A stretch of DNA of 64,000 bases from assembly GCF_051903065.1 (NCBI RefSeq), contig NZ_CP178438.1. The stretch is one strand, 5' to 3'. The notes under the pieces were generated by a model that saw only the letters and a list, made by a program, of their open reading frames with translations, did not search any database and was not told where the DNA came from. Within the stretch, counting starts at the first letter, position 1. Every line of letters starts with the position of its first letter. The stretch is from Escherichia coli. Its GTDB lineage: Bacteria > Pseudomonadota > Gammaproteobacteria > Enterobacterales > Enterobacteriaceae. Positions 56,986 to 59,900 of the stretch are shown here, piece after piece. Made by a program: the position numbers and the translations under genes.

Positions 56986-59900
56986 ATGCAAAGGAAAAAA
57001 TTATTGTCTGTTTGTGTTGCCATGGCGTTAAGTAGCCAGACATGGGCTGCGGATACTTCAATACCCGACTCAACCGAAAAAACACGTAAGTCCAGTAAGA
57101 TAACATGTCCGGCAAATATTCATTCCCTGAGCAAAGAGCAGCTAGAAAATTTATCCGCGGAGTGCAGAGAAAATAAAGATAGTGCAGTTTTACCATGGGC
57201 AGCTGCAGGTCTTGCTGCAATAGCTACGGGAATTGCTATATATACCTTAAGTGACGATGACAATCACCACCATAATAACTCCCCAGTTCCGGATGATGGC
57301 GGTGATACGCCTGTTCCGCCAGACGACGGCGGTGATACGCCAGTTCCGCCTGATGACGGCGGTGATACGCCGGTTCCGCCAGATGACGGCGGTGATACGC
57401 CAGTTCCGCCAGATGACGGCGGTGATACGCCAGTTCCGCCAGATGACGGCGGTGATACGCCAGTTCCGCCTGATGACGGCGGTGATACGCCGGTTCCGCC
57501 AGATGACGGCGGTGATACGCCAGTTCCGCCAGATGACGGCGGTGATACGCCGGTTCCACCAGATGATGGCGGTGATACGCCAGTTCCAGACGACGGCGGT
57601 GATACGCCAGTGCCGCCAGACGATGGTGGCGATACCCCGGTTAAACACGATCCTGTCGTCTATAAAAATGACGTAACTTGGGATCAGGATGCAAAAACTG
57701 TCAAAATTCGCGAAACTACCTTTACCTACAGCCAAAATGCCGATGGGAGCTACACCTTAACGGCGCCTGAGGGCAAGGAGACGATAGTTAAGTCCTGGAC
57801 AGTCCATGACGACAGCAACACCGTTGTCTTTGATGGCGTAAATACCTCAGGTGGCATCACCTGGAGTTACGACGATGATGGACTCATCCACATCACTAAA
57901 GAGGCCGGCGTCGTTGTTGACGGCACAACCGGGAATGCGATTGAGTTTGGTAACGCGATCATCACCGATCAGGGCGGCAACACGGCGCTGAATGGCGGTA
58001 CTGTCATGACGGTTGATGGTGACAACATCAACCTCAACAACGACGGCAAAACGACGGCCATCGGAGAAGGCTCGGTTGTCGGTATACTCACCGGCGACAA
58101 TATCACCATTAACAATAATGGCGAGACGGAAGTTGATGGCGGTACCGCGGTAATCATCAATGGCGATAATACCAAGCTAAACACTGCGGGTGACTCGACC
58201 ATCACCAATGGCGGTACGGGTAGCCTTATCAATGGCGATAATGCGCGGGTTGATAATAAAGGTACTATGACCGTTGACGGTGCGAATTCCACTGGCTCGA
58301 AAGTTGTCGGTGACGATGCCATCATCAAACAGGAAGGCGACTTATACGTTAGCGGCGGTGCGCACGGTATTGACGTTGACGGCAACAACACGTTCGTCAG
58401 CAACAAAGGCAATATTACGGTCGTCGAGGAAAACTCTATCGGCATGCTGCTTGATGGTGATGGTGTCAGCGTGATCAACATGGGTGACCTCAATATTGGT
58501 CAGGCCGCTACAGGTGAAAATGCAATCGGCATTCAGATCGACGGTAATAATGCGACATTTGTTAACGTTGGTGATATTACCGCGACCAACGCCGGAACCG
58601 GTATCAGCGTTGCAGGCGATAAAGCCAATATTTCACTTGCGGGCGGGTTAGACGTTGGGGATTTCTCCACCGGTCTTGATGTCTCTGGTGATAATAACAA
58701 CATGACGCTGTCGACTTATGGGCTGAATGTGACAGGGCAAGAAGCGACAGGTGTTAATGTTTCGGGTGATGGTAATACTATCGAAATAGCGGGCAGTATT
58801 CTGGTTGATAAAGATCAGAAAGCTGATAATGCGCAGCCTTACTTCTTTAATCCCTCAACCGGGGTAAATATCAGCGGTGACAACAACGACGTCACGCTGG
58901 ATGGTCAGTTAACCGTTGTTGCTGATAGTGAAACCACGTCGCGTTCCTATGCGAGTTACGACGGTGCTCAGGAACACATTGCGGGTATTGTTATTGCTGG
59001 CGATGACAATACCTTTACGCTTAATGGCGGTGTTCATTTTGTCGGTGAAAAAAATGTCATGGATGATGGCTCAAAACCTGCCGCATCTCGTCGTGGTATC
59101 GGAGACACACCGCTTATTAACGTTGATGGGCATTCCTCGGTCTACCTGAATGGTGAGTCAACCATCAGCGGCGAGTTCCCGCTGGGGTTCGAAAATCTCA
59201 TTCAGTTGAGCCATGGCGCGGAGCTGGAGATTGGAGCTGACGCAACGTTTGATATGAGTGATGTGGATTCTTTCACTTATTATTATCGTGTAGCGTTATC
59301 CACCATTAGTATTGATTCTGGTGCGAAGGCGACAAACAACGGTGAAGTGGAACTGAAAAATATCGGTTTTGCGGCTGCCTGGAATAAAGATTCAACGGTA
59401 ATCAATAACGGATCCATTGGCCTGGCGATGTACGATTTTGGTACCGACCCGGCACCAAAAGTCTTTGACGTTGAATACGGTGGGATTGGCGTTAACAATG
59501 GTACCATGACCACCAAAATGATGAATCAGCACAGTGTGCTGAATTATCCGGCAGAGTGGAACTTGTCTGATGGTACCTCTTTCAATAACAAGGCATTAGG
59601 GCTGACAGGTATGCTTGCCAGCTACTCGTCATCCATTCTGAACGGCGAAACGGGCATTATTGATATGTATGGCCGTGGCAGTGTAGGGATGCTAGCCATC
59701 GATAAATCAACCGCGGATAACGAAGGGCAAATCACCCTGGATACGCTGTGGGTTGATGAAAATGATGAAACATCGCTGCGTAATAATGTTGCAAATAGCA
59801 CGGCGAAAGATTTCGGTGTGGGAATGGCTTCAGGTACCGATGCCTATAATGGGGCATTAACTAAAGCCACGGCAACCAACCACGAGAATGGTGTGATTAC

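Follow-up and report, generated by a model that had tools for sequence, protein, structure and literature searches.

In a 64,000-nucleotide stretch of Escherichia coli DNA (the window; contig NZ_CP178438.1), a block of direct repeats lies within a large open reading frame (ORF), which raises the question of what kind of element this array is, which protein carries it and what differences in its length could mean. Most probably, the array is an in-frame coding minisatellite (variable-number tandem repeat, VNTR) in the ydbA/bigA gene of a type Va autotransporter, encoding a length-variable (PVP[P]DDGGDT)n tether. In the window strain itself, it is a relic in a decaying adhesin gene.

Anatomy of the array and its host gene

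Tandem Repeats Finder detected a single array at 57292-57642 (period 30, 11.8 copies, 90% matches, score 555), and parsing in codon register resolved it into 354 bp of head-to-tail units that are in frame with ydbA and follow the order ABCDEECDEFGH (Table 1). A 30-nt unit pattern (up to 3 mismatches) matched nine times in the 64-kb window, always within the array, compared to an expectation of 0.00 (100 shuffles). The earlier note had described a twelve-copy 30-bp repeat in ydbA with synonymous third-position variation, encoding a proline-rich PVPPDDGGDT-type spacer after the signal peptide and creating long spurious ORFs. Most of this description holds: there are twelve units, although units 1 and 11 are 27 bp long, each without one proline codon; the linker is in frame; and the 12 units differ in 9 columns, all of them synonymous third codon positions. 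The two antisense ORFs, as well as a further one on the sense strand, are indeed judged spurious because they coincide with the repeat, and it is only in the ydbA frame that the variation is exclusively synonymous. The array starts at residue 100, 77 residues beyond the predicted cleavage site (residues 21/22), so that it lies downstream of the signal peptide but not directly behind it, a conserved module being located in between. The encoded stretch comprises 120 residues (30% Asp, 29% Pro and 20% Gly) with a net charge of -36.

Table 1. Coordinates of the array, the ydbA gene and the insertion element in the window
Feature	Position	Strand	Basis
ydbA/bigA CDS, 5' fragment (codons 1-1251)	56986..60738	+	ORF and translation; ends at IS1 insertion point
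Predicted Sec signal peptide, aa 1-21, MQRKKLLSVCVAMALSSQTWA, cleaved before AD	56986..57048	+	read from sequence
Conserved N-terminal module, aa 22-98: Cys41-Pro42...Cys60 loop, hydrophobic Gly/Ala-rich segment, DDDNHHHNN cluster	57049..57279	+	family alignment
Hydrophobic segment AVLPWAAAGLAAIATGIAIYTL, aa 67-88	57184..57249	+	Kyte-Doolittle, family alignment
Antisense ORFs 57236-57559 (107 aa) and 57247-57735 (162 aa), judged spurious	57236..57735	-	mechanical ORF listing
Alternative-frame sense ORF, 141 aa, GTG start, judged spurious	57251..57676	+	mechanical ORF listing
Tandem array, 12 units (10 x 30 bp PVPPDDGGDT, 2 x 27 bp PVPDDGGDT)	57283..57636	+	codon-register parsing, Tandem Repeats Finder
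Partial 13th unit CCGGTT (PV), 3' edge of array	57637..57642	+	Tandem Repeats Finder, codon-register parsing
BigA_N beta-barrel domain, aa 224-304, directly 3' of linker	57655..57897	+	Pfam PF25784, E = 1.1e-32
IS1 target-site duplication, 9 bp, left copy, GCCGGGACG	60730..60738	.	read from sequence
IS1, 768 bp, insA/insB on minus strand, interrupts ydbA	60739..61506	-	terminal inverted repeats and ORFs
Target-site duplication, 9 bp, right copy, GCCGGGACG	61507..61515	.	read from sequence
ydbA 3' fragment (codons 1252-1954 plus stop)	61516..63627	+	ORF listing, in-silico IS1 removal
BigA_beta sandwich domain, aa 1523-1606 of restored protein	62329..62580	+	Pfam PF25783, E = 9.9e-25
Autotransporter beta-domain, outer-membrane barrel	62941..63537	+	Pfam PF03797, E = 5.4e-19

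The identity of the gene, whose product begins with MQRKK, is confirmed by synteny and domain content. The gene order ydbH-ynbE-ydbL-[gene]-pdxI corresponds to the chromosomal position of ydbA, and the gene is flanked by ydbL and pdxI in all 17 E. coli loci compared. A Pfam scan identified BigA_N (described in Pfam as 'BigA and YdbA N-terminal beta barrel') and BigA_beta, both above the gathering scores; the autotransporter beta-domain was missed with the full-length protein and detected when the last 355 aa alone were used as the query (69.4 bits, cutoff 26). The NCBIfam profile NF033178 (auto_BigA) scored 1089 bits, with a cutoff of 3400, the best stretch being the C-terminal third (aa 1313-1954); judged by this score, the window protein is a YdbA-type relative and not BigA in NCBI's strict sense. 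The predicted signal peptide shows a basic n-region (MQRKK), a hydrophobic core, small residues at -3/-1 and a cleavage site between TWA and AD, and is conserved across the BigA/YdbA family alignment. Together with a C-terminal barrel that ends in an aromatic residue (...MLNFKKTF in the restored protein), this is the organization of type Va autotransporters. The uninterrupted ORF joining passenger and barrel, also typical of this type, is broken by IS1 in the window strain and present in ECNB21-M121 and other strains. Promoter and terminator scans around the ydbA start gave signals at chance level. A word-indexed protein search returned mostly short fragments, and full-length YdbA relatives were seen with an exhaustive HMMER search. 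In the literature searched, ydbA as an autotransporter or as a gene with a tandem repeat received incidental mentions only.

The IS1 interruption of the gene is absent from the earlier note. A RefSeq record identical to the window annotates the element as an IS1A-family transposase, and in-silico removal of IS1 along with one copy of the target duplication restores a 1954-aa ORF that is identical to the intact gene of strain ECNB21-M121. Because IS1 splits the gene, the repeat is without protein-level consequence in the window strain. Inactivation is found elsewhere as well: the O157:H7 gene carries a nonsense codon (premature stop), K-12 ydbA is inactivated by IS2 plus IS30, and the annotations of G6/7 and TUM13936 list ydbA as a pseudogene.

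In type Va autotransporters, the passenger is joined to the barrel by its C-terminal end. Since the PF03797 barrel of YdbA is C-terminal, the N-terminal linker would be membrane-distal and could alter only the distance between the N-terminal module and BigA_N; the suggestion that copy number varies the reach of the passenger domain is at odds with this topology. In the proposed arrangement, the repeat stretch would tether a small N-terminal module, consisting of a disulfide-type Cys loop and a hydrophobic segment, to BigA_N, both of them at the N-terminal end of the passenger, distal to the membrane. In a 19-sequence family alignment, C41, P42, C60 and G75 are invariant and W71 is nearly so, and the hydrophobic segment (Kyte-Doolittle mean of 1.88 for aa 67-85) is found in every family member aligned. 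We considered this segment as an inner-membrane stop-transfer anchor and rejected the idea because, after a cleavable signal peptide, the passenger and the barrel would remain cytoplasmic.

AlphaFold2 predicts BigA_N as an all-beta domain (pLDDT 87-95), assigns low confidence to the N-terminal module (aa 22-98) and finds no secondary structure in residues 99-218 (pLDDT about 50). The repeat tether may thus be disordered, low pLDDT being weak evidence of disorder. A PDB sequence search gave no match for the full protein and one chance-level match for the barrel end (E = 1.2), and a Foldseek comparison of the AlphaFold2 model with PDB gave no match below E = 0.1, the BigA_N fold included.

Copy number of the repeat among strains

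As the earlier note had expected, the copy number varies among E. coli genomes: the alleles in sampled complete genomes carry 2, 4, 5, 7, 8, 9, 10, 11, 12, 15 or 19 units. They differ in steps of whole units, and the edge units A and I/H/J are conserved. In an evenly spaced sample of 60 of the 372 matching genomes, the match spans were 660, 632, 567, 510, 453, 420 and 363 nt. The loci retrieved for five such spans, plus that of STEC799, contained 12, 9, 7, 5, 4, 2 and 8 units; further retrieved loci had 11 and 15, and divergent alleles 7, 10, 11 and 19. Altogether, about 100 of the ~630 repeat-bearing genomes were covered by span and 17 by sequence. In the 2403 genomes with the K-12-type allele, a non-repetitive 40-aa linker occupies the same place, and the full-length match spans are nearly constant (508-514 nt in a 12-row spread sample). 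Thus, a unit longer than 10 bp, repeated head to tail beyond chance, is combined with whole-unit copy-number polymorphism among strains, as expected of a coding VNTR or minisatellite.

The widest spread (2-9 units) is found in O157:H7/O55:H7, the lineage in which ydbA has a premature stop. Six copy-number alleles within the O157:H7 clone are represented by the unit strings ABCDI, ABABCDI, ABABABCDI, ABABCDDI, ABAI and AJ, where J is a B/I chimera; as read from the unit order, these strings are register-preserving duplications or deletions of one to several units, with one chimeric unit. In-register gain and loss of units would result either from slipped-strand mispairing as the DNA replicates or from unequal homologous recombination among the units, and we infer one of these to be the mechanism. 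Most of the variation observed belongs to the O157:H7 lineage; because its gene carries a nonsense codon, the variability there is mutational, not demonstrably selected and uninformative about function. Short arrays (2-5 units) were observed only in this pseudogene lineage, a distribution that is confounded with phylogeny, and the intact alleles examined contain 7-15 units. Two pairs of strains, namely the window strain with ECNB21-M121 and JNEC-KY204 with UCPROB-002, share identical unit strings. Because all unit lengths are divisible by 3, the reading frame is not lost and the variants are variants of tether length. Accordingly, a phase-variable on/off contingency locus, which was considered as well, is rejected: the 30/27-bp units are inside the coding sequence and all alleles are in frame.

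Constraint on the peptide and competing explanations

Among 132 ten-residue units from 17 alleles, collected with a regular expression that fixed six of the ten residues and left degenerate edge units uncounted, there are 41 DNA versions and only 3 peptide versions; variation affects all ten third codon positions versus 2 of the 20 first and second positions. The variation is nearly all synonymous both within arrays and between alleles with flanks diverged to 50-75% identity, which argues that the peptide unit is held by strong purifying selection in intact alleles and that the tether probably has a sequence-dependent role. One such role would be that of an extended, strongly acidic and possibly cation-binding spacer. 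An acidic, Pro/Gly-rich low-complexity linker joins the same two conserved modules in every BigA/YdbA relative examined, with repeat units that differ by lineage (among them VTPPDDGGN x16, TPDDGGN x14, PVD-type and PIPDPTPD-type). When a single genome of each species was scanned for two PVPPDDGGDT units in succession, a search blind to degenerate relatives, only one Escherichia sp. contig was hit, indicating that the exact motif is Escherichia-restricted; the string PPDDGGD did not occur in the literature searched.

Several other explanations of the array have to be weighed against this background. Mis-assembly of a 350-bp repeat could in principle generate spurious copy-number differences: many database proteins of the family are labelled 'partial' and stop within the repeat, suggesting contig breaks at this point, and in one database entry the repeat is translated with a frameshift. 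Such an artefact is nevertheless extremely unlikely, given that complete genomes from independent laboratories repeatedly show identical alleles (2 units in six sampled strains, 4 units in at least eight strains and 9 units in at least eight), that only whole units differ between the conserved edges, and that a 7-unit array is just 204 bp long. The array could also be a functionless minisatellite tolerated in a dispensable, often pseudogenised gene, in line with the independent inactivations by IS1 (window), IS2 plus IS30 (K-12) and a nonsense codon (O157:H7), with the pseudogene annotations, and with a majority allele that lacks the repeat. We regard this as improbable; it is already disfavoured by the synonymous-only pattern, which extends to alleles with strongly diverged flanks, and by the family-wide conservation, at this position, of a linker with the same composition. 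The copy-number variation might, conversely, be selected in itself, for example for antigenicity or for tuning of the adhesin between hosts, an idea proposed for polymorphic repeat regions in other surface proteins. Purifying selection on the peptide, independent repeat expansions at the same linker position in many family lineages and the 7-15 units of intact alleles would fit such an adaptive contingency locus. It still seems unlikely, considering that units in multiples of 3 bp allow no on/off switching, that six of the eleven copy-number classes belong to the lineage with a nonsense pseudogene, and that the identical unit strings in both matching strain pairs argue against hypermutability.

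Two further proposals concern what the peptide would do. With three Asp per unit, the net charge noted above, an adjoining His cluster and exact conservation of the peptide, the DDGGD motifs could bind Ca2+ or other divalent cations and thereby stiffen the tether or link it to LPS. We give this little credence, since no Pfam calcium-binding repeat was matched, no binding site is supported by the AlphaFold2 prediction, and the resemblance of DDGGD to DxDxDG-type motifs is imperfect. There is also a slim chance that BigA/YdbA autotransporters carry at their tip a functional device not described before, made up of the conserved N-terminal module and the variable acidic polyproline tether that holds it. 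It might be a tethered peptide that inserts into membranes or interacts with LPS, the hydrophobic Gly/Ala-rich segment being TM-like; alternatively, it might be an N-terminal plug retained in the periplasm, with the passenger displayed as a loop. Were such a device to exist, the repeat number would set its reach, which would explain the exact conservation of the peptide. For the in-frame minisatellite encoding a length-variable tether, which we favor, the spacer function is likewise inferred.

Significance and relation to known systems

The array is a variable repeat of an ordinary kind, in an adhesin gene that is decaying. In practical terms, it is a marker of polymorphic length at which short-read assemblies break, and because of it RefSeq calls fragments of the protein 'proline-rich domain-containing protein' or 'hypothetical protein'. 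Throughout the BigA/YdbA family, a repetitive acidic linker that differs by lineage connects a conserved hydrophobic Cys-loop module with the distal tip of the passenger, and the module together with the linker provides a testable lead on an uncharacterised adhesin family, with current views not overturned.

The closest counterparts are K-12 YdbA (b4492) and Salmonella-type BigA, which occupy the same slot upstream of pdxI and share the architecture of the window protein: signal peptide, Cys-loop and hydrophobic module, acidic Pro-rich linker, BigA_N, beta-helix passenger, BigA_beta and C-terminal barrel. Compared with the window protein, the barrel end is nearly identical, whereas the passenger is only 63% identical; the K-12-type linker (SPLPPTPPDDESDDTPVPPTPGGDEIIPDDPDDTPTPPKP) is non-repetitive and length-stable at 40 aa across about 2400 genomes, in contrast to the repetitive linker of the window protein.

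As a tandem array with a copy number that differs among O157:H7 isolates, the repeat resembles the O157:H7 MLVA loci (Vhec/TR/O157-n). It is not among the nine commonly used loci, which have 6-, 7- or 18-bp units and none of 30 bp (PMC3768571), this comparison covering those nine. For strain typing, the array, with its six alleles, resolves sub-lineages in the highly clonal O157:H7.

Among autotransporters, Bordetella pertussis pertactin carries polymorphic GGxxP (region 1) and PQP (region 2) repeats that are known antigenic sites. Pertactin and YdbA are alike in possessing in-frame short Pro-rich repeats with a strain-variable unit number in a type Va autotransporter; however, the pertactin repeats have 5- and 3-residue units located in beta-helix loops and near the C-terminus, whereas the ydbA units encode 10 residues in an N-terminal tether outside the beta-helix. 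The Glu-Pro/Lys-Pro repeats of TonB and the Pro-rich wall-spanning repeats of Gram-positive surface proteins are extended spacers that emanate from a membrane or wall anchor and set the reach of a functional domain. The YdbA linker resembles them in its high proline content, expected extended non-globular conformation and putative distance-setting role but, unlike these spacers, it is purely acidic and lies at the free distal end of the passenger.

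The tandem array and its host gene

In-frame parsing of the long ydbA reading frame resolves the repeat into twelve complete units followed by the beginning of a thirteenth (see the table), ten of which are 30 bp long and encode PVPPDDGGDT; the other two, units 1 and 11, have 27 bp and encode PVPDDGGDT. Tandem Repeats Finder likewise reports one strong array (57292-57642; period 30, 11.8 copies, 90% matches, score 555), and a unit-length pattern with up to 3 mismatches yielded 9 matches in the window, all within the array, compared to 0 expected from shuffles. All nine variable columns among the twelve units are third codon positions (9/9), and all the changes are synonymous. 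An earlier note, made from the sequence alone, had described a twelve-copy 30-bp repeat; the position, the number of copies, the peptide and the synonymous variation at third positions that it gave are all borne out, but the uniform unit size is not. The long other-frame ORFs, of which that note called the antisense ones spurious, are present in the ORF list and coincide with the repeat; we consider them artefacts because the synonymous-only pattern is confined to the ydbA frame.

Features of the ydbA locus and of the restored protein (1954 aa, after in silico removal of IS1)
Feature	Position	Strand	Remarks
Conserved N-terminal module	57049-57279 (aa 22-98)	+	kept in every family member retrieved
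Tandem array, twelve complete units	57283-57636	+	from in-frame parsing
Partial thirteenth unit, CCGGTT (PV)	directly 3' of 57636	+	in-frame parsing
Other-frame ORF	57236-57559	-	ORF list; overlaps the repeat
Other-frame ORF	57247-57735	-	ORF list; overlaps the repeat
Other-frame ORF	57251-57676	+	ORF list; overlaps the repeat
IS1, 768 bp	60739-61506	-	splits ydbA into two fragments; 60730-61515 with duplications
Pfam BigA_N	aa 224-304		E = 1e-32
Pfam BigA_beta	aa 1523-1606		E = 1e-24
Autotransporter beta-domain PF03797	last 355 residues		E = 5e-19, segment scanned alone

The ORF is flanked by ydbH-ynbE-ydbL and pdxI (gene order taken from E. coli 23CRST027, which is identical to the window at this locus), in the slot upstream of pdxI that is held by ydbA in K-12. 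The coding sequence starts at 56986 (MQRKK...) and does not reach its natural end uninterrupted. The inserted IS1 is flanked by a 9-bp direct (target) duplication, GCCGGGACG; in silico deletion of IS1 together with one copy of the duplication yields a single 1954-codon ORF, and strain ECNB21-M121 carries an intact gene identical to it, including the 12-unit array. In the window strain, ydbA is a pseudogene. The full-length Pfam scan of the restored protein did not report PF03797; long repetitive queries can drop genuine domain matches. The NCBIfam model auto_BigA gave the best match over the C-terminal third, with a score far under the cutoff. Given these domain matches and the classification of BigA by Celik et al. 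as possessing an AIDA-I-like passenger and a NalP-type barrel (PMC3419190), the window gene belongs to the BigA/YdbA family of classical type Va autotransporters.

Upstream of ydbA (56550-57000), the DNA is very AT-rich: its GC content is 26-27%, whereas the flanks have about 50% and the repeat has 64%. Promoter-like matches in this stretch are at chance level only. The neighboring ydbD gene (15872-17101 of the extracted locus L001, just past the 3' end of the window) is annotated as frameshifted in both the window strain and ECNB21-M121. The ydbA gene itself is a mosaic (3' fragment, 61516-63627, compared with the family protein P0035): its C-terminal barrel region is almost identical to that of K-12-type YdbA, whereas identity in the passenger is only about 63%. 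Some strains match the window allele only as far as the edge of the repeat (rows H35-H38).

Copy number among strains and constraint on the peptide

Among 5426 complete E. coli genomes, 373 carry the N-terminal module of the window allele at an identity of 99% or more. With the array and its 150-bp flanks as the query, 60 evenly spaced records of the 372 matching ones showed match spans of 660, 632, 567, 510, 453, 420 and 363 nt, and the first sample (n = 40) added a span of 981 nt for a 1101-nt query. The 13 parsed loci of this allele contain 2, 4, 5, 7, 8, 9, 11, 12 or 15 units, so the copy-number variation predicted by the earlier note is real, and an identical number in all strains is clearly not what is found. 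The K-12-type allele, the commonest one (2403 of 5426 genomes), is a natural control: its 40-residue, Pro-rich, non-repetitive linker occupies the same position (L002, the K-12 locus, 2393-2900), and its full-length match spans are near-constant (508-514 nt in a 12-row spread sample).

With the distinct DNA versions of the unit denoted by letters, the O157:H7 arrays read ABCDI (5 units), ABABCDI (7; found in half of the sample and, by match span, in O55:H7 strain RM12579 as well), ABABABCDI (9), ABABCDDI (8), ABAI (4) and AJ (2), J being a unit that joins the 5' half of B to the 3' half of I. Such strings are the exact products that would be expected of in-register slipped-strand mispairing or unequal crossing-over. 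This unit order logic, and the fact that unrelated laboratories have recovered identical alleles in different genomes, argue against assembly error as the source of the differences. Many database entries are nevertheless short-read-derived 'partial' BigA proteins, 140-180 aa long, that stop inside the repeat (P0008, P0009, P0012, P0015, P0016, P0022), and one entry is a frameshifted read-through, which points to breaks or errors of short-read assembly at this array.

In all six O157:H7 loci fetched (L003, L005-L009), the annotation splits ydbA into the same two CDS fragments, and strain CDC#03-98 (L003 6854-12568) contains an in-frame stop at codon 1012 (GVCQEADEY to GVC*GADEY). The RefSeq 'proline-rich domain-containing' and 'beta strand repeat-containing' proteins are therefore barrel-less pseudogene fragments, and six of the copy-number classes originated in a pseudogene or at any rate persist in one. 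Variability is thus a mutational property of the DNA for which selection is not needed; a selected contingency locus is possible, but the data are explained without it. Short arrays (2-5 units) occurred exclusively in the O157:H7 pseudogene lineage, and the intact genes examined have 7-15 units, a suggestive difference that is confounded with phylogeny.

The peptide, in contrast, is under clear constraint. Even with flanking N-terminal modules of just 50-75% identity, alleles share the PVPPDDGGDT unit, in 7, 10 and 19 copies, and the Res13 allele, with a module nearly identical to that of the window, has 11. Among 132 ten-residue units from 17 alleles, there are 41 DNA versions and three peptide versions, with 10/10 third positions variable versus 2/20 first and second positions (six residues were fixed in the pattern used to collect the units, which under-counts degenerate edge units). 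Given that gene conversion alone would homogenise the DNA as well, this pattern indicates purifying selection on the repeat peptide in functional copies, and the synonymous-only variation speaks against a functionless minisatellite, which we disfavour.

Position of the linker in the protein and in the family

As judged from the sequence, cleavage of the signal peptide is predicted after residue 21 (between TWA and AD). The repeat does not directly follow it but is preceded by the conserved module, in which Cys41-Pro42, Cys60 and Gly75 are invariant and Trp71 nearly so. These residues lie inside or close to a hydrophobic, TM-like segment rich in Gly and Ala (aa 67-88; Kyte-Doolittle value of 1.88 for aa 67-85), after which comes an Asp/Asn/His cluster. 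A stop-transfer anchor is excluded for this segment if the passenger is exported, as the signal peptide is cleavable. Then follow serine 99, the repeat (100-217), proline 218 of the partial unit and, six residues further, BigA_N; residues 99-218 comprise 36 Asp, 35 Pro, 24 Gly, 12 Val, 12 Thr and 1 Ser, with a net charge of -36. AlphaFold2, run on a 19-sequence alignment, modeled BigA_N confidently (pLDDT 87-95) and the repeat without secondary structure (pLDDT about 50), with low confidence for the module and very low confidence for the hydrophobic segment.

In type Va proteins, the C-terminal end of the passenger is attached to the barrel. With the barrel being C-terminal, the linker is therefore membrane-distal, which contradicts the proposal that copy number alters passenger reach: the linker cannot change the reach from the cell and sets only the tether between the N-terminal module and BigA_N.

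HMMER, run exhaustively against 1.8 billion representatives, retrieved only 64 clusters, whose full-length members all have the same order of parts: signal peptide, Cys loop, hydrophobic segment, acidic low-complexity Pro/Gly linker and BigA_N. In most lineages, the linker is repetitive with differing units, namely VTPPDDGGN x16, TPDDGGN x14, ITPTPPDDGGD, PVD-type triplets, PIPDPTPD and GDNGDDNGG (P0023, P0025, P0032, P0033, P0038, P0043, P0045, P0047, P0051, P0069); two consecutive exact units, sought in one genome per species, matched a contig of Escherichia sp. and nothing else. Expansion of repeats at this position is recurrent and lineage-specific; the linker is thus ancient in position and composition, with a repeat structure re-invented in each lineage.

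Interpretation and known systems

The array is, with good probability, a coding VNTR that would give rise to different lengths of an extended and highly acidic tether; that the tether acts as a spacer has about an even chance, and a putative cation-binding role for the repeat seems quite improbable. For the window, the array sits in an IS1-inactivated gene, and the proposed effect on reach does not fit the topology. Its nearest known counterparts are the linkers of K-12 YdbA and Salmonella BigA, which are homologous to that of the window but non-repetitive, and the polymorphic Pro-rich repeats of pertactin, another type Va protein, which represent the same kind of phenomenon. No mention of the repeat peptide was found in the literature searched. 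The standard O157 MLVA loci have units of 6, 7 or 18 bp, and the ydbA array, with its 30/27-bp units, is not among them (PMC3768571). A VNTR in a surface-protein gene is a well-known kind of locus, to which the ydbA array adds one more case.
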